From sequence record PX651718.1: DNA of 52,949 nt; one strand, given 5' to 3'. Under the pieces are notes generated by a model. The model made no database searches and was not told the origin of the DNA. It saw nothing but the letters and a program-made list of their open reading frames with translations. Origin of the DNA: a phage. Positions 1 through 41,843 of this stretch are shown piece by piece (the first letter of the stretch is position 1; each line of letters opens with the position of its first letter). A program made the translations under genes and the position numbers.

Positions 1-54
1 AGAGCAATCTGTTCGACAGATGTGTCGTTGGTTCGAATCCAACCTCGTCCGCCA
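1..54 (+). tRNA. 3' portion of a tRNA (anticodon arm, variable loop, T-arm, acceptor 3' strand, CCA); anticodon tentatively UCG (Arg)
   Basis: T-stem GTTGG (27-31), loop TTCGAAT, CCAAC (39-43); acceptor 3' strand CTCGTCC (44-50), discriminator G, CCA (52-54); D-stem 3' strand GAGC at 2-5. Anticodon arm is non-canonical (ATCTG/CAGAT with 5-nt loop, or 4-bp stem with loop GTTCGAC). Confidence 0.6.
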
Positions 55-82
55 CTTTAATAACAGCAATACTGGAGTCCTC

Positions 83-223
83 ATGGATTTTGACGCACTT
101 GATAATTTAGACTTCGGTGCTGCCGAAGAAGCAATTGAAGAATTGAAGAAGAAGCAGGACGAAGAAGCAATCGTCCCTGGCGAAGGCGATAACGACTGTA
201 CAAGTGGTGCATGCGCCATCTAA
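83..223 (+). CDS. small acidic protein (46 aa), hypothetical
   Basis: ATG at 83 with GGAG 5 nt upstream; in frame with track ORF 20..223, whose 5' part overlaps the tRNA; product rich in D/E. Confidence 0.35.
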   Translation: MDFDALDNLDFGAAEEAIEELKKKQDEEAIVPGEGDNDCTSGACAI

Positions 224-231
224 GGTGATTT

Positions 232-468
232 ATGCAGCAGCTTAAATCAATAATTCTTGGCGTCCTGACTGCATTTGGTATTATCATTGCAGTGTTCCTC
301 AAAGGCAAAAGCTCAGGCAAAGCCGAGGAGCGTCAGGAAGCCACAGAGAAGCAACTGGATTCATTAAAAGAATCTATCGAGATTAAATCGCATGTTCAGA
401 AAGAAGTGTCTAGCAGTTCTGATAGCAATGTCGATAGTGAGTTGCTCTCAAAGTGGGTTCGTAAGTGA
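232..468 (+). CDS. membrane protein with N-terminal TM helix and charged C-terminal domain; i-spanin-like (putative)
   Basis: Track ORF; RBS AAGGTGA upstream; hydrophobic segment IILGVLTAFGIIIAVFL then K/E/S-rich region; overlaps a lipoprotein ORF in another frame. Confidence 0.5.
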   Translation: MQQLKSIILGVLTAFGIIIAVFLKGKSSGKAEERQEATEKQLDSLKESIEIKSHVQKEVSSSSDSNVDSELLSKWVRK

Positions 469-601
469 TTATTGCTTAATTGCACAACCAATATATTTGG
501 ATGTTGCAGAAGTGAAAATACTATCACGCGAAACCAAAACACAGATTTTAGTCCACAACGAAACGTGGGCACAAAAGTGTTCTAAACTTACCCGACAGTG
601 A
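392..601 (+). CDS. outer-membrane lipoprotein, o-spanin-like (putative), overlapping the preceding gene in the +1 frame
   Basis: Track ORF; signal peptide with lipobox-like IVSC followed by Cys (MFRKKCLAVLIAMSIVSCSQ); Rz/Rz1-type overlap. Confidence 0.45.
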   Translation: MFRKKCLAVLIAMSIVSCSQSGFVSDYCLIAQPIYLDVAEVKILSRETKTQILVHNETWAQKCSKLTRQ

Positions 602-1559
602 GTGAACAAATGCTCGCCATCGCATTTCATTTGGCAGTCCGGTACGGGACTTTAAACACACGTATATCATAGTCGAGGGAGTGCGCGACTTTAAATAACG
701 AGACTCTAGCTACTTGTAGCATAGTAGGTGTAATTCTTGGTGCTCTGGGCATAACACATAATAAATTGCTGCCTCCTAGGATTGGAACGTCCCGTAATGA
801 ACGCGAGAAGTTCAGGTGGTCACTTCCTAAAACAGTGTCCGAGAACACCCTCGCCAAAGTGCTTGAGAACGTTAGCTCTGTCTTGCCAGCATTAATGGCA
901 CGTTGGCCGCGTAAAGGCCACAACGTCTGACCAACGTATCGGTCGCCAAATTCAATGGGATTTTCGTATGTACGGGCTTGACCGTGGTGAAACGACCTGA
1001 CTGGTTCGATTCCAGTGAATCCCCCGAACAATGGATTCGTAGAGTTAATTAAACCTGCACGATGGGATAGGGATGAAGCATCCGAGGCCGACTGTGTAAT
1101 TGCTGGCTTACTATAAACCAGCCGAATCCACCAATCGGGAGAAAGTGCTGTGGACGATATTGTATCGTAGGTGGTCGCATTCCACCCTCCCAACTTCTAC
1201 CAAACAGTTATGCCTCTGTTCAAAAGGCTCAAGAGAGCGTCTGGCATACCGTAGCGATACGGCTTAGTTGCGCTGATTGTGTTGTGCAGAAAGAAAGTTC
1301 AGGCTTTCGTTTGGGTTACTCCTCATCCCGAAGTTAGCTGGATTCAAAATCCAGACTATGTTCCTATACACATGAAATATGCAAGTCGAGGGTTCTTAAT
1401 GTTCAAACATGATGCGAGCATTAAGCGGGTTTATACTTTTCCCCGATGGTCCCCATAAACAAGGCTGATTCACTTGGGCGGTTCGAATCAAATTTAATAA
1501 GTGTTTTGTAATGTTCGTAATAGTCAGGGCACTTACTTAAATTTTAACTGGAGAGAAAC

Positions 1560-1790
1560 ATGAAAACTGCTGAAATTGCCGAAGAGATTTATAAGGCCGT
1601 AATAGCCAGCCAAATCACAAGTGAAGTCCTGTACATGGATATTGAAGAAGTTCGCAATGCCTTTGGAGGTTTTGCAATCTTGTCAATAGAAGCTGCGGAA
1701 GCACTGACAAACACGTACAATCAACGCGAATATGAAAAGCGTTCTGTACTAAATGCGTCTATGAAAGAAATTCAGGCGTCATTAAAATAA
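1560..1790 (+). CDS. hypothetical protein
   Basis: Track ORF with GGAGAG RBS immediately upstream. Confidence 0.55.
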   Translation: MKTAEIAEEIYKAVIASQITSEVLYMDIEEVRNAFGGFAILSIEAAEALTNTYNQREYEKRSVLNASMKEIQASLK

Positions 1791-1846
1791 TACCATTATC
1801 ATGGTGCGGAGCTAATTAATCTCCCACCATATGAACCGGAGAGCAA

Positions 1847-2497
1847 ATGATTACTGCAACACTCGTTGACCACATGGGCAGCGACCTTACAACTGTTAAT
1901 GCTGCACGAGTTTCTTATGGTGCAGAGTCGCATGAAATATCTTTACGTGACGAGAAGCTGATTGAGTTTCTTGCAAAGCATAAACACATTACGCCGTTTC
2001 GCCACGCACAGGTAACATTGCGTTGCAAAGCTCCAATCTTCATTGCACGTCAGCTTGGCAAACATCAAACTGGCTTTAGTTGGAATGAGGTTAGCCGTCG
2101 TTACAAAGATGGTGAAGCAATCTCTATTGAATGCTTTGTACCAGATGTTGTATTTGGTCGTCCTGAAAAGTTGATGACTCAGACTGCACAACCGTTGCCA
2201 CAAGATTTTGCTGACGATATTCATTATCGCATGGAAAGCCATAACAAGGCTTGCATCGCAGAGTATGAAACGTTAATTGGTTTGGGGATTGCCCCAGAGC
2301 AAGCTCGCATGGTTCTTCCACAATCCATGATGACTGAATGAATTTGGACTGGCTCACTTTATGGCTAGGCATCTATGTATAATCAACGTTCCTCCGAACA
2401 TGCGCAATACGAAGTTCGCTTGTTTGCGGAAGAAGTGAATAAAATCATGTCAGAACTATTCCCAATTTGTTGGAAGGCTCTGACCAACCAGGAATAA
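1847..2497 (+). pseudogene. thyX: flavin-dependent thymidylate synthase (ThyX)-like reading frame with two in-frame stops (TGA 2339-2341, TAG 2366-2368) and altered catalytic motif
   Basis: N-terminal 164 aa (track ORF 1847..2341) align with ThyX (AARVSY, PFRHAQ, KAPIFIARQ, SRRY); the same frame continues after the TGA as IWTGSLYG, then TAG, then ASMYNQRSSEHAQYEVR... to TAA at 2495-2497, matching the ThyX C-terminus with no frameshift; the RHR motif is replaced by KHQ. Confidence 0.7.
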
Positions 2498-2501
2498 ATA
2501 A

Positions 2502-4265
2502 ATGAACGTCAAGCAATGTGTGGCTAAGATTAAGCACGATGTACCAGACTGTAAATCCACATCTGGCAAGTCTTTACAGGTTTGGTTGAATGTCGATGAA
2601 GCTGGTAATAAGAACTTCTCTGGTTACTGCTTTGCGTGTGGCGTTCTGGTACCAAATCCTTATGGCAATAATCCGGAGAACATTCCAGAGATTAAAGTCA
2701 AAACTCCAGAAGAGATTCAGGAAGAAGTTGATGAAATCACTGCTTGTCCTCCGTTTGATTTAACCCATCGCAGCATTGAGCCGGAGTTCTGGAAGGCTGC
2801 TGGTGTTCGACTTCTGTATTCAGAGTATGATGGGAAGACTCCAAATGCTCTGGCGCATGGCTACACCAAAAATGGTAAACTTGTTCGTTGGAAGATTAAA
2901 CTTCTGAACAAGAAAGTTATGTGGTCGGTTGGTGACACTCAGGGTAACGACCCTTACAACTGGATGGCTGCAAAAGCAATTGGCGGTAAGACACTGTTCA
3001 TCACAGAAGGTGAAGAAGACTGCATCGCATTGCGTCAAATCCTCAAGACTATGAACCGTGGTGGTGCATACGAAGATTTGGATTTTGCTGTAATTAGTTT
3101 GAGTGACGGGAGTGATTCCGTACACAAATGTTTGTCACCAGTTGCAGAAGAAATTAAGCAACGTTGGGAGCAGGTTGTTATCGTATTTGATGATGATGAA
3201 CCTGGACGTAAAGCTGCAAAAGAAGCGTGCCGATTGTTGCCTGGTGCAATGATTGCAACACTTCCAGCTAACGATGCCAACGATTGTTTGAAGCGTGGCT
3301 TGCTAAAAGCTACTCAATCAGCTGTTGTATTCCGTGCTGCTCGTCCTCTTCCTACAGCACTTGTCAACAAAGAACTTCTTATGGAAGAGCTTGATGACGA
3401 GGTTGAACAGGGTGTGGATTATCCTTGGCCCAAGTTAACCGACTTAATGTTTGGTCAACGTCGAGCCGAAGTTATTACAATCGGTGGTGCAGAAGGTGGT
3501 GGTAAAACTACCTTGTCCCGTCAGATTGTGCATCACAACATCACCAAGCACGATTGGGGAGTGTTTACTGCATACATGGAGGAAACTCCTACAGAAACAC
3601 TGCGCCGAATGGCTGGCCTTAATGACAACTTGCCATATTGGGAGCCTGCGTTTACTCGTGAAGACCCTCGATATGATGAAGCTAAGTTCCGTCAAACTGC
3701 TGCGAAGATGCTTCGTAACATGGAGATTTGGGACCGCAAGCAAGCTGGAGAAGACCCTTATGAAACCTGGGATGGGTTAAAGACGATTCTTCGTCAGATT
3801 GGACCAGACATTGATATGTTTGTCCTTGATAACTTAACCTACTTATCGGAAGGGATTTCTGCCTCAGAGAAGAACGACTTCTTAGGTAAGCTGTATGCAG
3901 ATATTACTAAGCTGGCAGACCAATACCAGTTCCATGTGAATATTCTGTCGCACCTTAACCCTGTGGCAAAAGGCCAACGACCTCATGAAGATGGTGGACG
4001 TATTAAGAAGTCAGACTTTACTGGCTCCCGTGCTGCTGCCAAATATTCTCATGGTATGTTCGGCTTTGAGCGTAATAGCCAGGCAGTTGACCCAAACTGT
4101 TCTATTATTCGTTCCATCAAAGCTCGTAAGAGTGGTAAAACAGAAGGCTTCAAGACGTATTATGACACCGAATCTGGTCGAATTATTCAACGTTCTTGGG
4201 ATGACTCTCTGTTCGAAACTAAAGAGATTGTTCAACTTACTAAGAAGAACGGTCCACACCAATAA
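2502..4265 (+). CDS. bifunctional DNA primase/helicase (T7 gp4-like)
   Basis: N-terminal Cys-rich zinc-binding segment; TOPRIM motifs (ITEGEED, VIVFDDDEPG); DnaB-type Walker A (GGAEGGGKTT) and Walker B (MFVLDNL). Confidence 0.9.
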   Translation: MNVKQCVAKIKHDVPDCKSTSGKSLQVWLNVDEAGNKNFSGYCFACGVLVPNPYGNNPENIPEIKVKTPEEIQEEVDEITACPPFDLTHRSIEPEFWKAAGVRLLYSEYDGKTPNALAHGYTKNGKLVRWKIKLLNKKVMWSVGDTQGNDPYNWMAAKAIGGKTLFITEGEEDCIALRQILKTMNRGGAYEDLDFAVISLSDGSDSVHKCLSPVAEEIKQRWEQVVIVFDDDEPGRKAAKEACRLLPGAMIATLPANDANDCLKRGLLKATQSAVVFRAARPLPTALVNKELLMEELDDEVEQGVDYPWPKLTDLMFGQRRAEVITIGGAEGGGKTTLSRQIVHHNITKHDWGVFTAYMEETPTETLRRMAGLNDNLPYWEPAFTREDPRYDEAKFRQTAAKMLRNMEIWDRKQAGEDPYETWDGLKTILRQIGPDIDMFVLDNLTYLSEGISASEKNDFLGKLYADITKLADQYQFHVNILSHLNPVAKGQRPHEDGGRIKKSDFTGSRAAAKYSHGMFGFERNSQAVDPNCSIIRSIKARKSGKTEGFKTYYDTESGRIIQRSWDDSLFETKEIVQLTKKNGPHQ

Positions 4266-11307: not shown

Positions 11308-11493
11308 ATGCGCACAATACAATGTCCTAACTGCCATTATGAAATTGCAGAAGATGATTTCATAACGCAGCAATGTCCTATCTGTGATTCATACATGCCA
11401 CTAAACCGCCTATATTTAAAGGCCGATTCTGGTTTAGGCAGCATCATTCGCATCAATCCCGTGCAAACTCAGCCATTAGTGGATTGTGATTAA
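11308..11493 (+). CDS. small zinc-ribbon protein
   Basis: CPNCHYE ... CPICDS (two CxxC pairs); RBS CGGAG. Confidence 0.5.
   Translation: MRTIQCPNCHYEIAEDDFITQQCPICDSYMPLNRLYLKADSGLGSIIRINPVQTQPLVDCD
11475..11490 (+). promoter_or_regulatory. variant copy of the conserved promoter-like motif (ATTAGTGGATTGTGAT)
   Basis: Matches ATTAGTTGGATGTGAA with small changes; lies just upstream of the terminase start. Confidence 0.3.
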
Positions 11494-36639: not shown

Positions 36640-37739
36640 TGGCTTACACTACCTTTTCACAAACCAAGAATAACCAACTACTAGAGCCAATGTTCTTTGG
36701 TCAGAACGTTAACGTTGCCCGATATGACCAACAGAAGTACAGCATCTTCGAGAAGTTAATCGAGAAGCAGTTATCTTTCTTTTGGCGACCTGAGGAGGTT
36801 GATGTTAGCCAGGACCGAATTGACTATGCTGGTCTGCCTGAATGCGAGAAGCACATCTTCACCAGCAATTTACGATACCAAATCCTGCTCGATTCCATTC
36901 AGGGGCGTGGACCAACCACAGTTTTGCTGCCAATTGTGAGCATTCCTGAGCTGGAAACTTGGATTGAAACTTGGTCATTCTCAGAGACAATCCACTCTCG
37001 TTCTTACACGCACATTATTCGTAATATCGTGACAGACCCAAGTGTAATTTTCGATGAAATTGTGGAAAATGAGCACATTAAAATGCGTGCAATTGGCATC
37101 TCCCAATATTATGACGAGCTTCAACATCTGACTTCCATGTGGCATTTGCATGAAGATAAAGTTTCTCTTCGTGAGCTTAAGAAGAAGCTGTATTTATGCC
37201 TCATGTCCATTAATGCACTGGAAGCAATTCGCTTTTATGTCAGTTTTGCTTGCTCATTTGCCTTCGCTGAACGCAAGTTAATGGAAGGAAATGCCAAGAT
37301 TATTCGCTTAATTGCTCGTGATGAAGCACTCCATTTGACCGGAACTCAACACATGCTGAACCTTCTTGCAAGCGGTGTTGATGACCCAGAAATGGCAGAA
37401 ATTGCTAAAGAATGCCGTCAAGAATGTCAAGAAATGTTCGAAAATGTGGCCCAACAAGAGAAAGATTGGGCTGATTATTTGTTCAAAGATGGCTCAATGA
37501 TTGGCTTAAATAAGCAAATTCTGTGCGGATATGTGGAATATATCACGAATATTCGTATGCAAGCAGTTGGATTGGATGCTCCATTCAAAGGTGCTACTAA
37601 CCCGATTCCTTGGATTAGCTCATGGTTGAATTCGGATGCCGTACAAGTTGCTCCACAGGAAACGGAGATTAGTTCGTACCTTGTTGGGCAGATTGACTCC
37701 GAAGTTGACACCAATGCTCTGGGCGGATTTGAGCTTTAA
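36639..37739 (+). CDS. nrdB: ribonucleotide reductase class Ia small subunit (NrdB)
   Basis: By recall very similar to E. coli NrdB ([11 protein letters not shown] ..., [21 protein letters not shown]); iron ligands and tyrosyl radical residue conserved ([10 protein letters not shown]). Confidence 0.9.
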
Positions 37740-37750
37740 CGATTATATGC

Positions 37751-37788
37751 GAGAAGAGATTCGATGCGTTAGCGTCGTTTCTCTTTGA
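37751..37788 (+). terminator. rho-independent terminator
   Basis: Hairpin CGATGCG-TTA-GCGTCG followed by TTTCTCTTT directly after the nrdB stop. Confidence 0.5.
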
Positions 37789-37828
37789 GCTAGAATAAAA
37801 CAAGTAAATTAAATATTTATTTATTCCC

Positions 37829-37845
37829 AATATTGCTACAATATT
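37829..37845 (+). promoter_or_regulatory. perfect 17-bp palindrome AATATTG-CTA-CAATATT (candidate operator or promoter element)
   Basis: Exact inverted repeat; related copies at 38025, 40374 and 41075. Confidence 0.4.
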
Positions 37846-37884
37846 AAGAGTAATATTAGGAATGCGTAAAGTTAAAACCAAATG

Positions 37885-37947
37885 GTACATGGTCGGTCAA
37901 CTGTACCTGGACATAGATTCGTTCACGGTCGGTCAGCTGTATCTCGC
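37885..37947 (+). repeat. two direct repeats GTACATGGTCGGTCAACTGTACCTGG / CGGTCGGTCAGCTGTATCTCG
   Basis: Near-identical 20-26 nt units about 40 nt apart; a third copy at 41129. Confidence 0.5.
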
Positions 37948-38024
37948 CAAAATTTGTTCGAATGGAAGACCGACTATTAAATAATTTTTTTTTTATAATT
38001 TTTTTTTTAATTTAAATATTGCTA

Positions 38025-38041
38025 CAGAATTAATGAGACTA
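38025..38041 (+). promoter_or_regulatory. imperfect copy of the AATATTG palindrome (AATATTGCTACAGAATT) in an A/T-tract region
   Basis: Flanked by long poly-T/poly-A tracts (37975-38000, 38081-38100). Confidence 0.3.
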
Positions 38042-38268
38042 GAATTCGTAACAAAGCTACGAGACTCAAATTGCGGCAATATTATAATTTTTTATTTTTT
38101 GGGCCAGCGGGGAGGGGAAGCCCAACGTCCTATCGGACTTAAATACGGTCCCTACTCCAACTTTTTCCTACAGCCTATCGGCTTAATGATAACACCAAGT
38201 TAGGCGCTTCGCTTATGAGTCAAGGTCAAAGTCTTCGTGCTGTTGTAACAGTGGCACAGGTTTGTGAT

Positions 38269-38284
38269 ATTAGTTGGTTGTGAA
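38269..38284 (+). promoter_or_regulatory. conserved promoter-like motif, variant ATTAGTTGGTTGTGAA
   Basis: Member of the ATTAGTTGGATGTGAA family; 67 nt upstream of the RNA polymerase start. Confidence 0.4.
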
Positions 38285-38350
38285 TTGTGTAATGGCTACG
38301 CTATTATAATCCGTTTCAGTTAAATCATACACAATCTTGGAGACTTACAA

Positions 38351-40291
38351 ATGACTACTATCACCACTCAAACTATCAAATCCGTTGTTCCTGCTATCAC
38401 TGCTCTGGTATACCGTGCCAAAGAGAAGCAGAACTATATGCAGCCTCAGACTTGTGCTATTGCTGCCTTAGCCATATTCAAGATGATGACGTCTTTCACA
38501 CGTGATGACGTTGTTCCTGCCATTGCGATGGTTGAGCTGGCTTCTGCTTCTATTGCTGATGCCAACCGTTACAACAACGATTTGAAAGCAATGCACTATG
38601 TTGACCCAGCTATCAACCTCATTGGTCTGGCTAAGCACTTTGGCTTCATCACCATGAACGAAGACAAGTCATTCCAACAAACTGATACATGGGTTGAACT
38701 GGTTACAACCAAAGACACCGCAGTGCCATTCACCGAGCGTGTTACATCTGAATCTCGTCGCAAGCCTTTCGTTAAAGGTGGCAAAGTTAAGCCATCCAAA
38801 ACTCTGAAAGCTGCAATCGAATTCCTGCAAGATACTGAGTACCATGTGGAGACTGAGATGGTTCGCATCATTCAGTCCATGCTTGAGCAACGTACTTATG
38901 GTGGCTTGCAGATGCCAGAAGCAATCCAGACTGAACTCCATGTTTGGAACAATGCTGTAGCAATGATGAATCAAGACACTCTGTACTCTGACTACTTTGC
39001 TGATAACCGTGGTCGTTTGTATCACGTAGCATGTGCTGGTCCTAACCCACAATCCTCTGACTTTGCTCGTTGCTTGTATTCTCACAATGTTGAGAACATC
39101 GTTAAGAAGTTTAACGAAGATGGTTCTACTACCATTGCATACAACATGTTCATGGCAGAGCTGGAAGATATTTCCGGTGGTGAATGGTGCAGTGCTAAGC
39201 GTTTAACTTATGTTGCACAGAATCCTGCTGGTTCTTTGGCCCGTATGCTGAACATGCCTAAAGCTGAACGTCCTTCTAAGCCATTCACTTATGTTCGTCT
39301 GGCTCTGGATTGGTTCAAGTTTGAGACTACAGGTGAGTGTGATTCTCGTGTAGGCTTTGGCTTAGATGCTAAATGCTCTGGTACTCAATATCTGGCATTC
39401 ATTGCAGGTAACATGGAAATGGCTCGTGCAACAGGTCTGGTTGATTCTGAGACTAAAGCATCTGACCCATACCAGTTATCTCTTCGTGAACTGTTGAAAT
39501 TACTCGACCGTTCTTCAATGAAACCTTCTGTTGAAATCATGGAAGAGTTCTTGAACCCTAAAGCTGGTCGTAAGTTTATCAAAACTCCATACATGGCTAT
39601 TCAATACGGTGGTGGTAAAGCTGCTTTAACTGGTTCATCTGACTTTATCTCCTACATGACAGAAGCTCTCCAGATTCCTATGGAGAAAGTTGAGGCATTT
39701 GCTGAACTGTGTGTAGAAGCAATCCATAACGCATTGGGTGCTAAGATTAACATGTTCATTGAGAAAGCTGCTGATGCTGCATACAACCGTTGTGTTGAAC
39801 TTGGTAAAGAGTACATCACATATCGTCACACTGATGGTCAGGTTGTAATGAAGCCTTGCTTCCCATCTCGTGAAATCTGTGAGGCATTCAGCATTCGTGT
39901 TGATTCTCAAACTCGTGTTATCTTTGGCCAGATTCAGGAGAATAAGCCTTGGACCATTCGTGAATCCAATCCAACTAAAGAAGAATTCAAGCGTACTTTC
40001 GTTGTTAACTACATTCAAGGTATTGACGCACTTGTTGCTCGTACTGTTGCAGTTAAAGCTAAAGAAGCTGGTCTTCGTGGTTTTACTTCAATCCATGATT
40101 GTTTCCGTTGCTGTTTGGCAGATGCTCCACGTATGATGGAAGTTATTCGTGCAGCATATGTTGAAATCTTTGTAACCAACAATCAATTCGAGAATCTGTC
40201 TAAGCAACTCGGTGGCATTCAGATGTATCATGAGAACATCGTAACCGAAGAGCTTCTGATGAGCGAACACGCTTACTACTTCTGTCAATAA
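38351..40291 (+). CDS. single-subunit DNA-dependent RNA polymerase (T7-like, compact 646 aa)
   Basis: Motif A-like LDAKCSGTQY (compare T7 DGSCSGIQH); motif B RKFIKTPYMAIQYGG; motif C SIHDCF; RBS GGAG. Confidence 0.85.
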   Translation: MTTITTQTIKSVVPAITALVYRAKEKQNYMQPQTCAIAALAIFKMMTSFTRDDVVPAIAMVELASASIADANRYNNDLKAMHYVDPAINLIGLAKHFGFITMNEDKSFQQTDTWVELVTTKDTAVPFTERVTSESRRKPFVKGGKVKPSKTLKAAIEFLQDTEYHVETEMVRIIQSMLEQRTYGGLQMPEAIQTELHVWNNAVAMMNQDTLYSDYFADNRGRLYHVACAGPNPQSSDFARCLYSHNVENIVKKFNEDGSTTIAYNMFMAELEDISGGEWCSAKRLTYVAQNPAGSLARMLNMPKAERPSKPFTYVRLALDWFKFETTGECDSRVGFGLDAKCSGTQYLAFIAGNMEMARATGLVDSETKASDPYQLSLRELLKLLDRSSMKPSVEIMEEFLNPKAGRKFIKTPYMAIQYGGGKAALTGSSDFISYMTEALQIPMEKVEAFAELCVEAIHNALGAKINMFIEKAADAAYNRCVELGKEYITYRHTDGQVVMKPCFPSREICEAFSIRVDSQTRVIFGQIQENKPWTIRESNPTKEEFKRTFVVNYIQGIDALVARTVAVKAKEAGLRGFTSIHDCFRCCLADAPRMMEVIRAAYVEIFVTNNQFENLSKQLGGIQMYHENIVTEELLMSEHAYYFCQ

Positions 40292-40299
40292 GAGAAACA

Positions 40300-40340
40300 G
40301 GGCTGTCATCGAAAGGTGATGGCCCTTTCTTTATTCTTTA
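40300..40340 (+). terminator. rho-independent terminator after the RNA polymerase gene
   Basis: GGGC ... CATC-GAAAGGT-GATG ... GCCC stem-loop followed by TTTCTTTATTCTTTA. Confidence 0.55.
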
Positions 40341-40373
40341 TTAATTAAATCCTTTAATTCCCAATATTCAAGC

Positions 40374-40405
40374 AATATTGCTGCATGTAATATTGTTTCA
40401 ATATT
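40374..40405 (+). promoter_or_regulatory. cluster of CAATATT / AATATTG half-sites
   Basis: CAATATTCAAGCAATATTGCTGCATGTAATATTGTTTCAATATTCG: four half-sites within about 45 nt. Confidence 0.35.
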
Positions 40406-40409
40406 CGAC

Positions 40410-40425
40410 ATTAGTTGGATGTGAA
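40410..40425 (+). promoter_or_regulatory. conserved promoter-like motif ATTAGTTGGATGTGAA (consensus copy)
   Basis: Exact consensus. Confidence 0.45.
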
Positions 40426-41074
40426 GTAAAAGAATACGGAGAAATATTACTCACTTCGTTCGTGAGTTACCGCATGTCATGTTGAATCATTCTAGAAACA
40501 TTTAGCATGTCAGCTTTGAGTTACAGCGTTGTAATGATGTGGCAATCATTGAACTCCCTGGGTTGGCCACCTACAGTTCCAGCAACCATGACTTAGAGTA
40601 GGGATATCTATCCGAAACTTGTACTTCACCTATAGCATGTTCAATTGCGACAATATTGCTCCATCTCCTATTATAAAGGCCCACCCACAAGCCGGGAGAT
40701 AACTTTGGTAATATTGGAACTTTTGGACATGCTTCTTTCTTTCTTTCTACAAGAAATCGAAAGAAGAGAAGAGTCGGAGCAAAGCCTCTCGTTTACACGA
40801 AGAAGCCGCCCGATTTTGAGCAACAAATATTGTGACAATTGCGTCGCAGTATGGCATGTAAATATTGCTACAAATTGGCATGTTGGAATGTGGCAGAATT
40901 GTTAGAGGACTAATCACCTCGAAGATACAATCGTCTACCAATCTGGCATGTTAATTTTGTAACAGTATTTGTGCCAATTTCGCATGTAATAGCTGTATCA
41001 GTATTGACCCAATATTCTTGCAACCCGCATGAATACTGGCTTCCAGCCAAGCGAAGGCTTTATCATCGCATGTA

Positions 41075-41091
41075 AATATTGTGACAATATT
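41075..41091 (+). promoter_or_regulatory. perfect 17-bp palindrome AATATTG-TGA-CAATATT preceded by GCATGTA
   Basis: Exact inverted repeat; GCATGT(A/T)AAT...TTG..ACAA units recur at 40853, 40945, 40981 and 41217. Confidence 0.4.
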
Positions 41092-41128
41092 GGGATAAAA
41101 CCCTTTATTTAATTAGTTTTATTATGCT

Positions 41129-41153
41129 GTACATGGTCGGTTTTCCGTACCTG
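41129..41153 (+). repeat. third copy of the GTACATGGTCGG...GTACCTG direct repeat
   Basis: GTACATGGTCGG is identical to 37885-37896. Confidence 0.5.
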
Positions 41154-41285
41154 CTTGCTCCAATCTTAATGTGCCAAATACGTTAAGTATGGGAGTAAAC
41201 CTGTAATTAATGGTGCATGTTTAATTGTGACAAAATTCGTCTATTTGGCAGATGAGTTAGTTGCAATTAAGCATGTTCATTTATC

Positions 41286-41301
41286 ATTAGTTGCATGTGA
41301 A
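41286..41301 (+). promoter_or_regulatory. conserved promoter-like motif ATTAGTTGCATGTGAA
   Basis: 15 of 16 match to consensus. Confidence 0.4.
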
Positions 41302-41399
41302 TAAGACCAAATCTCTGTAAATTCTGCTGAAATTGTGTGACAGATTTTAGAGAGATTATGTCTCCAAGCTAATCATTGTAGTTTTTCGACACTTTGTGT

Positions 41400-41440
41400 G
41401 TCACATATATAGCCTGTGAAAAACGTGTGGTATATTGCTG
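41400..41440 (+). promoter_or_regulatory. possible host sigma70-type promoter with extended -10 (TGGTATATT)
   Basis: TGnTATATT at 41428-41436 about 150 nt upstream of the first early ORF; weak -35. Confidence 0.25.
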
Positions 41441-41591
41441 GATTGCAACGCGCCCACCAGACTAGGAAGTCACTGATGGCGGCACACACAGGAATACTAT
41501 ATAACTCCCTACAACTTTAAGGTGGATTGAGGTAAGACAAGACCTCCACAATCGTTCTGTAGGGAGTTTTCCTTTAACTTTGGAGAATAAA

Positions 41592-41843
41592 ATGGATACC
41601 ATCAACAAACGTGCAAAATTTGCTGACCTATCAGAAGGTCAAATCTTCACTTACAACTCTATCAAATGTATTAAGGTAGAGGGTGAGTGTGGCCTATACA
41701 ACACTGTAAGATTCTATGACTCAAGCCGTGCATGTAAACTTAAAGACAGTGATGTTGTTGAAATCGAAATCGAATTAGAGCCAGATGGTTCAAATGATGA
41801 AATCATTCTGCGTAAAACTGTTGGATACACTAAAGGATTCTGA
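41592..41843 (+). CDS. hypothetical early protein
   Basis: ATG at 41592 with GGAG 6 nt upstream (track ORF starts at an upstream TTG). Confidence 0.55.
   Translation: MDTINKRAKFADLSEGQIFTYNSIKCIKVEGECGLYNTVRFYDSSRACKLKDSDVVEIEIELEPDGSNDEIILRKTVGYTKGF

Follow-up and report, generated by a model that had tools for sequence, protein, structure and literature searches.

The window analysed here is the whole 52,949-nt stretch of sequence record PX651718.1, a complete Carltongylesvirus coliphage genome (Chaseviridae; phiEcoM-GJ1/ST32-like). Chaseviridae are myoviruses with a T7-like RNA polymerase (RNAP) and unusually long terminal repeats that carry the polymerase gene. The locus examined runs from the 3' end of nrdB through an upstream cluster of repeat units (U) and the RNAP cassette to a single downstream unit (D) and the hairpin behind it. 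Its features are as follows (DTR, direct terminal repeat).

37762-37787, plus strand: terminator-like hairpin and T tract 3' of nrdB, where the late operon ends; U1 follows about 100 nt on
37885-37909, plus strand: upstream unit 1 (U1), GTACATGGTCGGTCAACTGTACCTG, with the 18-nt core TGGTCGGTCAACTGTACC at 37890-37907; 26.8 bits, the best weight-matrix match of the genome
37921-37945, plus strand: upstream unit 2 (U2), GTTCACGGTCGGTCAGCTGTATCTC, in tandem 36 nt after U1, with its core at 37926-37943; 15.2 bits
37959-37976, minus strand: degenerate inverted copy, TAGTCGGTCTTCCATTCG on that strand, predicted to pair with U1 or U2; 16.8 bits
37977-38020, no strand assigned: very AT-rich tract, T10-ATAA-T10, directly after the upstream units; GC 0.20-0.23
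38139-40771, no strand assigned: putative long DTR of about 2.6 kb holding the RNAP gene, placed through its homology with six phages whose ends have been mapped or are duplicated
38351-40291, plus strand: single-subunit RNA polymerase gene (646 aa), named after the RNA polymerase annotation in relatives
40299-40336, plus strand: strong intrinsic terminator 3' of the RNAP gene, annotated as a terminator in SA91KD
41129-41153, plus strand: downstream unit (D), GTACATGGTCGGTTTTCCGTACCTG, with the core TGGTCGGTTTTCCGTACC at 41134-41151; 25.7 bits, the second-best weight-matrix match
41165-41187, plus strand: conserved hairpin with the invariant top GTG-CCAAA-TAC, about 15 nt after D

The window has exactly two occurrences of the 12-mer GTACATGGTCGG, both on the plus strand: 37885 and 41129, where the original prediction had placed an identical word. 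The similarity claimed for the extended outer copies is seen in GTACATGGTCGGTCAACTGTACCTG and GTACATGGTCGGTTTTCCGTACCTG, which agree at 21 of 25 positions. These copies, predicted to lie about 3.2 kb apart in direct orientation and to enclose the RNAP gene, are separated by 3244 nt and do enclose it (38351-40291), while the second internal copy expected at 37927 corresponds to GTTCACGGTCGGTCAGCTGTATCTC at 37921-37945, whose GGTCGG begins at that position. Common to the repeats is an 18-nt bipartite motif, TGGTCGGT-N3-C-N-GTACC, with a left half, TGGTCGGT, shared by the upstream and downstream sites and a site-specific right half (CAAYTGTAC upstream, TTTYCGTAC downstream), each version of which is kept across genera. 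We are highly confident that all three repeats represent a single conserved bipartite DNA element of 18 nt, present as two strong same-orientation copies per genome that flank the DTR.

For the repeat pair, identity over the whole window is not decisive when taken alone: 15 direct pairs reached at least 21/25 compared to about one in mononucleotide shuffles, with 7 of the 15 belonging to another motif family and about 7 lying in coding DNA. When the comparison was confined to the non-coding blocks (37740-38350 against 40292-41580), none of 200 shuffles attained 21/25. We also built a weight matrix from 14 motif instances, all from genera other than Carltongylesvirus, and scanned both strands of the whole genome with it. 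The two top sites were 37890 (26.8 bits) and 41134 (25.7 bits), singled out among 105,898 positions, and they are the only two in 52.9 kb to outscore every shuffle (best of 200, 21.3 bits); both bracket the DTR. Given this ranking and the shuffles of the non-coding blocks, we take the repeat to be real and beyond chance. Moreover, an unbiased search for the longest exact words common to the upstream and downstream blocks yielded the GGTCGGT word, which extends over 13 nt in the window, 11 in PM1 and 9 in IMG47563, along with a promoter-like family, AATATTG.

The upstream/downstream motif pair was found, in the same orientation, in Carltongylesvirus (17 genomes), PM1, Faunus, Y2, 4HA13, phiA050 and IMG47563, and it persists where the non-coding DNA around it can no longer be aligned or shares only 64-77% identity. 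Across lineages with diverged flanks the TGGTCGGT half is kept at both sites, and PM1 has an identical 11-mer at both, with flanking bases unlike those of the window. The original prediction had asked about relatives that retain the RNAP cassette while lacking the repeats; both repeats are kept in at least seven lineages, and since relatives keeping the cassette keep the repeats too, we regard these as genuine, selected elements. In a 12-lineage alignment, the D core is among the two most conserved blocks. At the upstream site, tandem pairs also occur in 4HA13 and IMG47563 (35 nt apart) and phiA050 (36 nt apart), and the spacer between tandem units diverges between genomes while the cores stay constant, as expected for binding sites. 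Of the classes proposed for these repeats at the outset, putative protein-binding sites remain the most plausible. The degenerate inverted copy is present in Carltongylesvirus and PM1 and absent from Faunus, Y2 and phiA050, and AT-rich tracts resembling that at 37977-38020, which adjoins the upstream units and belongs to a region (37950-38100) of GC 0.20-0.23, also occur in Y2, Faunus and phiA050. A terminator reading of the GGTCGGTC...GACCGAC stem was rejected, as its arms do not covary and Faunus, Y2 and phiA050 lack the stem. Within genomes, the C/A polymorphism in GTA[C/A]ATGG at both sites was uncorrelated, and thus gave no sign of concerted evolution. An IMG/VR scan with the degenerate motif found pairs confined to Chaseviridae contigs and, elsewhere, single matches that are presumably due to chance. 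The motif words were not found in a literature search, nor are the repeats mentioned in the published descriptions of ST32, flopper, Mangalitsa, PP101 and Tiny.

What do these sites flank? According to the ICTV profile of Chaseviridae, a long terminal repeat with the RNAP gene is a property of the family, and we infer that the RNAP cassette of the window is this repeat. DTR ends were taken from PhageTerm (Mangalitsa, 4HA13), duplicated record ends (PM1, Y2, JL1) and a record start (Faunus), and those of all six phages project to 38134-38139 and 40771-40775 in the window, agreeing within 5 nt. With ends so well defined, local signals must direct the site-specific cutting. Nonetheless, boundary placement in the window is not certain, since the published DTR of PYps23T (2339 bp) maps to boundaries other than those of the six phages. 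The motifs, at 37885-37945 and 41129-41153, were rejected as physical DTR boundaries, and the motif was found in the sequence at neither of the actual DTR edges. The idea that the RNAP cassette is something special therefore stood, in that it appears to be the long direct terminal repeat of Chaseviridae, but the repeats are not its edges; as recombination or module boundaries they fail as well, with the terminal-repeat ends lying about 250 nt inside the first copy and about 360 nt inside the third. That the cassette is a terminal repeat would matter for annotation and for the reopening of assemblies of these therapeutic-candidate phages.

Thus, in the window the motifs lie about 250 nt outside the left DTR edge and about 360 nt outside the right one. 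Across lineages, the distance from the cut sites is 140-320 nt for the upstream motif, varying more than two-fold between genera, and about 350-370 nt for the downstream motif (350-370 nt past the right edge in the five lineages in which that edge could be placed). In all lineages examined, then, both terminase cut sites are flanked by motifs 140-370 nt away, the upstream distance being variable. No description of Chaseviridae packaging signals was found, and the 18-nt motif bracketing the DTR is undescribed.

Neither coding, RNA structure nor an RNA family fits the motif. Our preferred reading, to which we assign a probability of about 0.35, is that the element is a DNA recognition site for concatemer processing or packaging around the terminal repeat. 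A putative phage protein would read it as double-stranded DNA, and it would mark both places where unique DNA meets the terminal repeat in replicating concatemers, whose order would be late genes, U, DTR, D, early genes. There, it might help to place the machinery that cuts at both DTR edges or, alternatively, aid the duplication of a single DTR copy that leaves one DTR at each end of the packaged genome. Its role would be analogous to that of accessory sites flanking the cut site in other phages. The evidence for such a role is purely positional. The upstream cluster, with two direct copies, one inverted copy and an AT-rich, probably bent tract, resembles known terminase-recognition arrays. 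Against the reading, distances of 140-320 nt for U and about 350-370 nt for D are long for a site that positions a nuclease. U and D may also have partly different jobs, because their right halves are each conserved yet mutually different. We are more doubtful of a specific version in which the TGGTCGGT elements are cis-acting brackets, with a terminase or replisome factor at U and D defining or licensing cuts 250-360 bp inside. If true, mutation of the brackets would make it possible, throughout the family, to probe how long direct terminal repeats arise, which is, to our knowledge, a poorly understood step in long-DTR phages.

This arrangement may be compared with the T7 concatemer junction, where pac signals, the CJ class II pause site and the phiOR/phiOL 'replication' promoters lie around a 160-bp terminal repeat. 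Both phages have an RNAP of one subunit and genomes that are not permuted and end in direct repeats, and in both, short cis elements in the same orientation and tied to no gene lie a few hundred bases to each side of the repeat and are thought to act on concatemers. Unlike that of T7, however, the repeat here is about 2.6 kb long and includes the RNAP gene, the motif is unlike both the candidate phage promoter (ACATTAGTTGG family) and the class II signal, of which it has 4-5 of 7 bases, and we know of no pair of identical flanking words in T7. Lambda cos (cosQ-cosN-cosB, with the R1-R3 terminase sites) and P1 pac (with its hexamer repeats flanking the cut) likewise combine short repeated direct or inverted words, bent or AT-rich DNA and words on both sides of a terminase cut; these words lie up to about 100-150 bp from a single cut, whereas in the present genome two cuts would be made 2.6 kb apart, with the words 140-370 bp outside them. 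A Kayvirus repeat is also tandem with a period of 35-36 bp, differs in copy number between close relatives and sits at the end of the unique region, directly before the right long terminal repeat, but it is unrelated in sequence, has from 2 to more than 20 copies, is absent from some strains and has no reported partner copy beyond the left repeat.

A possible though unlikely alternative to a processing or packaging site is that the element acts as an operator or leader for early transcription, with a phage or host regulator binding both sites or with the RNA form acting in cis. It would then co-regulate RNAP promoters to the right of U and early-gene promoters around D, and its flanking of the DTR would be incidental. 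The ICTV profile states that Chaseviridae promoters are yet to be identified. Both copies lie in promoter-rich non-coding blocks, 35-55 nt downstream of the extended −10-like words TGcTACAAT (37835-37842) and TGtGACAAT (41081-41088), but a simple sigma-70 scan called no promoter at these words or at the motifs, and the spacing from −10-like word to motif varies from about 8 nt in 4HA13 to about 45 nt in the window. Two stem pairs of the hairpin at 41165-41187 each show both-side compensatory changes in 3 of 12 lineages, and these, together with the invariant loop, make it probable that the D block is transcribed. The D region also folds somewhat, if marginally, better than shuffles (z = −2.1), while the upstream region has no folding advantage over shuffles (z = −0.97). 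The small hairpin within the motif does not covary and its pairs are broken in other genera; accordingly, a structured RNA was rejected, the alignment fold containing motif pairs that are invariant or broken, never compensated. Rfam returned no hit at gathering score over the whole window and none even at E ≤ 1 over 37700-41650, and a tRNA/tmRNA scan found none. Lambda nut and HK022 put also have two sites per genome, one for each early unit, and there each early leader has a linear conserved box followed, about 15-20 nt on, by a hairpin with a conserved loop; here this holds for the downstream site only, the upstream site having no hairpin, and sequence similarity is absent. Moreover, unlike in lambda and HK022, most transcription here is by the phage's own RNAP, and we know of no N-like factor for this phage, nor of any host transcription-factor operator (TrpR, LexA, IHF) that fits the motif. 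Nonetheless, the promoter-like surroundings and the covarying hairpin after D fit a transcription or RNA role equally well as the positions of the motifs fit processing or packaging. The conserved two-site motif offers a cheap, concrete target for work on DTR edge choice or early transcription control; were it merely a local regulatory word, its interest would be confined to Chaseviridae specialists.

It is improbable, in our view, that the element is part of a replication origin near both ends of the unique region, like the T7 secondary origins phiOL and phiOR, with transcription opening the AT-rich tract and the phage primase-helicase starting at TGGTC on the displaced plus strand. In T7, phiOR and phiOL flank the terminal repeat in the same orientation a few hundred bases away, and TGGTC, the most conserved 5 nt of the motif, matches a recognition sequence of the T7 gene 4 primase. 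A T-rich tract of 30-40 nt directly precedes D in all genera, there is a 40-nt tract of about 20% GC behind U, the phage RNAP is T7-like and, according to the ICTV family profile, Chaseviridae encode their own DNA polymerase and helicase/primase. However, some copies have TAGTC, TTATC, CAATC or TAATC instead of TGGTC, a conserved 18-nt motif exceeds what a primase site needs, and GC skew is uninformative because it is uniformly positive, without a switch. The suggestion that the repeats are iterons fares poorly: the plasmid and phage origin iterons, direct repeats of about 18-20 bp, also adjoin an AT-rich tract, as found here, but there are at most two tandem units with a period of 35-36 nt rather than about 22, where at least three regularly spaced repeats would be usual, the third copy is distant, and no initiator gene was identified.

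Similarly improbable is that the pair is an ancient duplication relic or a neutral by-product, with the two sites conserved for unrelated local reasons. Whole-window identity statistics do not set the pair apart from other 21/25 pairs, the right halves are site-specific, the similarity between copies falls to about 16/26 in some genomes, such as GJ1, and within Carltongylesvirus there is no correlated change between copies. But a relic would hardly account for the retention of TGGTCGGT at both sites despite diverged flanks, for a matrix from other genera picking exactly these two sites, or for the PM1 11-mer, identical at both sites amid flanks unlike those of the window.

We consider it very unlikely that the element is a sequence-specific signal for the phage RNAP to pause or terminate, comparable to the class II signal of T7 concatemer junctions, on which DNA maturation depends and whose consensus sequence is ATCTGTT. 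U does come right before the concatemer junction, where the late operon ends, its units contain CA-N-CTGTA, and the Faunus copy, TCATCTGTAC, has 6 of the 7 conserved bases if ATCTGTT is taken as the consensus, but on that same basis the window copies CAACTGTA, CAGCTGTA and TTCCGTA match only 5, 5 and 4 of 7. The published class II signal is a seven-base motif preceded by A, C or T, and the best-conserved part of our motif, TGGTCGGT, lies outside it. No T-run was found within 10 nt after the motif, and the 646-aa RNAP is only distantly related to the T7 enzyme.

Hardly any weight can be given to the repeats being starts of small proteins, in which ATG-GTC-GGT would encode Met-Val-Gly in a 40-aa ORF (37862-37984) and a 20-aa ORF (41124-41186). 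The 40-aa ORF is annotated in flopper, 2KOFFS, Ecp_YSF and DE15, and every indel within Carltongylesvirus is a multiple of 18 nt, but the ATG-initiated frame differs among the 17 congeners: ten have one frame, six another owing to a 1-nt indel, and in TH33 it is cut short after 8 codons. Other genera have other frames, without a consistent start or stop. Variable columns by codon position number 12/9/11 upstream and 7/8/10 downstream, without third-position excess, a PHROG search gave nothing below E = 0.19, and sequence inspection revealed no usable ribosome-binding site before either ATG.

Scarcely credible, too, and largely refuted, is the view that the repeats are recombination sites or att-like boundaries of a mobile RNAP cassette, as direct repeats with a 13-nt identical core around a cassette might suggest. 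Each of the 64 related records gives a match to the query containing the cassette (37500-41500), 39 of them over at least 80% in one place; the DTR, as the actual structural unit, has its ends 250-360 nt inward of the repeats; and the flanking stretches of the relatives examined have no annotated integrase or recombinase, the annotated neighbours being nrdB, the RNAP gene and small hypothetical genes. Nor did the deletions or inversions looked for between the outer copies turn up, or an empty site, in about 25 relatives whose DNA was read directly. Structural variation between the outer copies is limited to one versus two tandem upstream units, with U2 missing as an exact 36-nt loss in BSBP01 and TH24.

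A megablast search with positions 37500–41500 matched 64 phage records, mostly Chaseviridae phages of Escherichia, Yersinia and Erwinia, the best matches (88–97% identity) being the Carltongylesvirus genomes 2KOFFS, BSBP01, Ecp_YSF, flopper, ST32, SA91KD and phiEcoM-GJ1. The window length of 52,949 nt is that of the unit genome of the Carltongylesvirus-type group, and all large ORFs are on the + strand. Judged by its place directly ahead of the 587-aa ORF 2502–4265, ORF 1847–2341 may encode the small terminase. One match, PP952070.1 ('Staphylococcus phage Pel53', labelled a Staphylococcus hyicus phage), is classified in Chaseviridae and is 88% identical to the region; its stated Staphylococcus host looks doubtful.

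Principal features of the locus
end at 37739, + strand: nrdB, the last late gene
37885–37909, + strand: upstream motif unit 1 (U1)
37921–37945, + strand: upstream motif unit 2 (U2)
37959–37976, inverted: degenerate motif copy
38139–40771: predicted direct terminal repeat (DTR)
38351–40291, + strand: single-subunit RNA polymerase (RNAP) gene
between the RNAP gene and the early genes, ~1.3 kb: non-coding block
41129–41153, + strand: downstream motif unit (D)

The word GTACATGGTCGG occurs exactly twice in the window, at 37885 and 41129 and both times on the + strand, the extended outer copies being identical at 21 of 25 positions, and 36 nt beyond the first a third copy, GTTCACGGTCGGTCAGCTGTATCTC, begins at 37921; the repeats are thus located and composed as originally described, internal copy included. 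Across the whole window, identity by itself is not decisive: 15 direct pairs share at least 21 of 25 positions, compared to about one in shuffles. Of these pairs, seven are members of a separate motif family and some seven are found in coding DNA. When the two non-coding blocks were compared alone, none of 200 shuffles reached 21/25. Moreover, a weight matrix trained on 14 instances from other genera only, and used to scan both strands, ranked 37890 first (26.8 bits) and 41134 second (25.7 bits) genome-wide, with a maximum of 21.3 bits in 200 shuffles, followed by the inverted degenerate copy (16.8 bits) and U2 (15.2 bits). An unbiased word comparison also placed GGTCGGT among the longest words that the upstream block shares with the downstream one in the window, PM1 and IMG47563. 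The motif consensus reads TGGTCGGT-N3-C-N-GTACC; its left half is common to both sites and its right half exists in an upstream and a downstream version, each kept across genera. At the upstream site, the direct units (one or two) form a small array with an inverted degenerate unit and a tract of 40 nt at ~20% GC.

The upstream pair is kept in 17 Carltongylesvirus genomes, with informative variation. BSBP01 and TH24 have a single upstream unit through an exact 36-nt loss, and alignment to window positions 37903–37945 located an 18-nt hairpin-forming insert (TCTCCTTCGGAGAAGGTA) in unit 1 of SA91KD and DE15 and at the equivalent place of unit 2 in Bp10. An identical insert in either unit suggests that the tandem units have exchanged sequence. 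The downstream copy differs within the genus in its first bases (TACATGG or TAAATGG) but retains TGGTCGGTTTTCCGTAC. Other genera have a motif copy at both places in unchanged orientation, with just TGGTC or TCGG retained in the more distant contigs IMG31418, IMG14912 and L016.

Motif copies in other genera (phage or contig: upstream; downstream)
PM1: TCTTGGTCGGTCAACTGCACC; TCTTGGTCGGTTTTCCGTTCC
Faunus: TTATCGGTCATCTGTACC; TATGGTCGGTTTTCCGTAC
Y2: TTGTCGGTCGACTGTTCC; TGGTCGGTTTACCGCTCC
4HA13: two units, 35-nt spacing; TTGTCGGTTTACAGCAC
IMG47563: two units, 35-nt spacing; TGGTCGGTTTTTCTCAC
phiA050 (Aeromonas): two units, 36-nt spacing; TGGTCGGATTTCCATACT

The original prediction had these repeats bracketing an RNAP cassette, possibly as recombination or module boundaries. 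The boundary reading is not supported: the bracketed segment is neither missing nor inverted in any relative examined, no recombinase is annotated near the motif sites in those relatives, and the motifs do not form the cassette edges. By homology, the cassette appears to be the terminal repeat itself (~38139–40771), because independent sources (PhageTerm annotations, duplicated ends and the start of the Faunus record) place the same boundaries. The ICTV profile describes the genomes of Chaseviridae as linear and non-permuted, with terminal redundancy in the form of long repeats of ~3 kb, and repeats of ~2.6 kb in Y2 and PM1 are reviewed in the PYps23T study. The PhageTerm repeats annotated in Mangalitsa (1–3234) and 4HA13 (1–3120) both begin TTAAA(A)TACGGTCCC, equivalent to window position 38139, and that of Mangalitsa ends ...GAAGAGAAG, at 40771. 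Records with the repeat at both ends, namely PM1 (2665 bp), Y2 (2608 bp) and JL1 (2995 bp; CGGACTTAAAT...GAAGAAGTC), agree within 5 nt, and the Faunus record starts AGTCGG..., the sequence beginning at 40772. Both motif sites consequently fall outside the predicted repeat, U1 starting 254 nt before its left edge and D 358 nt after its right edge. Relative to the conserved word ATACGGTCCC, which begins 4 nt inside the repeat and served as reference, the upstream units lie at 142–321 nt across lineages; D lies 350–370 nt from the right edge in the five lineages with a placeable edge (window, PM1, Faunus, 4HA13 and Y2).

Unlike these boundaries, common to six other phages, the repeat published for PYps23T (MW147598.1; 2339 bp, by ligation-PCR) maps from 1 to 2339 onto window positions 38279–40419, with both ends within copies of the ACATTAGTTGG motif. 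Either this lineage truly differs, or the PCR switched templates between the two ACATTAGTTGG copies. At the left edge are two small palindromes with a TATC centre (GTCC-TATC-GGAC, 38127–38138, and AGCC-TATC-GGCT, 38172–38183), the predicted repeat end coming directly after the first, whose arms co-vary (CTCCC-TATC-GGGAG in PM1, ATCCC-TATC-GGGAT in Faunus and phiA050). This palindrome is a better candidate for a cut-site signal than the repeats originally reported. At the right edge (40771/40772), an imperfect inverted repeat, CTTCTTTCTTTC...GAAAGAAGAGAAG, comes before the boundary and AGTCGG after it (40732–40775). At both edges, the JL1 and PM1 duplicated-end records run 4–5 nt beyond the PhageTerm annotations, an excess that may correspond to staggered ends. 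Just outside the right edge, the block GCATGTTGGAATGTGGCAGAATTGTTAGAGGACTAATCACCTCGAAGATAC (40880–40935) is kept in every genus examined, and its possible stem GAGG/CCTC becomes GGG/CCC in PM1, IMG31418 and IMG14912.

We regard it as established that the motif is a cis element of the whole family, read as linear sequence, and that each genome has two strong copies of it, oriented alike, on either side of the terminal repeat in the concatemer, in the order late genes–upstream site–[DTR]–D–early genes. From position and conservation only, we tentatively propose that a phage protein involved in concatemer processing or packaging around the repeat recognises the motif as DNA (probability roughly 0.35). 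Such a role would be accessory, comparable to those of cosB/cosQ, the P1 pac hexamers and the T7 junction signals. Against it stand the distance to the cut sites, which is large and varies, and the right halves that differ between the upstream and downstream sites. The main rival, an operator or leader element of two early transcription units, draws on the promoter-like surroundings of both sites and on the covarying hairpin (41165–41187) ~15 nt after D, and is to our minds the less probable of the two. An origin element like T7 phiOL/phiOR is doubtful, and a relic without shared function equally so. A polymerase pause site is very improbable, the motif matching 4–5 of the 7 bases of the T7 class II pause signal, whose existence we take from the literature.

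Other readings were rejected. A conserved protein is not encoded: an annotated 40-aa ORF takes the repeat in frame A in ten of the congeners but in frame B in six others, and in TH33 it is truncated, other genera read the motif in other frames, variable columns of the motif regions show no third-position excess, and the ORF has no PHROG match. Nor is an RNA fold indicated, with z = −0.97 upstream, stem pairs of the small hairpin CGG-TTTT-CCG at D invariant or broken and none compensated, and no tRNA or Rfam match (at gathering score or at E≤1) at the motif. A simple scan found no sigma-70 promoter there, and the candidate phage promoter is a separate nine-member family, ACATTAGTTGGATGTGA.

The motif words gave no full-text match and the family papers searched did not mention it; the 'repeat_region' features of the flopper record are other repeats. 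It is best classed with a known kind of element, the cis-acting words that are recognised next to early promoters or the ends of phage genomes. As a local operator the motif would be ordinary; if it is true that it delimits long terminal repeats, it would offer a useful handle on that process.

Several neighbouring elements were also observed. The hairpin at 41165–41187 is conserved, with an invariant top (GTG-CCAAA-TAC), two stem pairs showing compensatory changes in 3 of 12 lineages each and no Rfam match. Members of the ACATTAGTTGGATGTGA family, all on the + strand, are at 11474, 38268, 40409, 41285, 44746, 49276, 49416, 49604 and 51571, eight of them in the early and middle region, and none of 100 shuffles reached nine matches. 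Their 5′ part resembles the SP6/K11 promoter region, ATTTAGGTG. They are annotated as 'putative phage promoters' in phiEcoM-GJ1 and SA91KD; according to the ICTV profile, Chaseviridae promoters are still unidentified. Repeated sigma-70-like units (GAGACTnnAATTG...ATATT, 38020–38095), for which phiEcoM-GJ1 carries a host promoter annotation, come before the predicted left boundary of the repeat and would therefore be upstream of the right-end RNAP gene copy only; within the repeat, the gene retains one promoter-like site, TTGTGA-18-TATTAT (38278–38307, in region 38278–38309). Both non-coding blocks are filled with palindromes of the form AATATTG-N3-CAATATT, often with GCATGT ahead of them, which are conserved across genera. 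Several hold an extended −10-like TGnTACAAT or TGnGACAAT. The palindromes may serve the host polymerase as early promoters, or may be operators.

AATATTG-N3-CAATATT palindromes
upstream block: 37829–37845, 38070–38083
downstream block: 40389–40405, 40644–40657, 40826–40839, 40861–40877, 41075–41091, 41224–41237

Compared to the window start at 38351, the RNAP gene start is annotated variously in relatives, giving 1941 nt in most, 1854 nt in SA91KD and DE15 and 2115–2175 nt in Mangalitsa, 2KOFFS, Bp10 and JL1, the long versions extending back across the promoter-like region.
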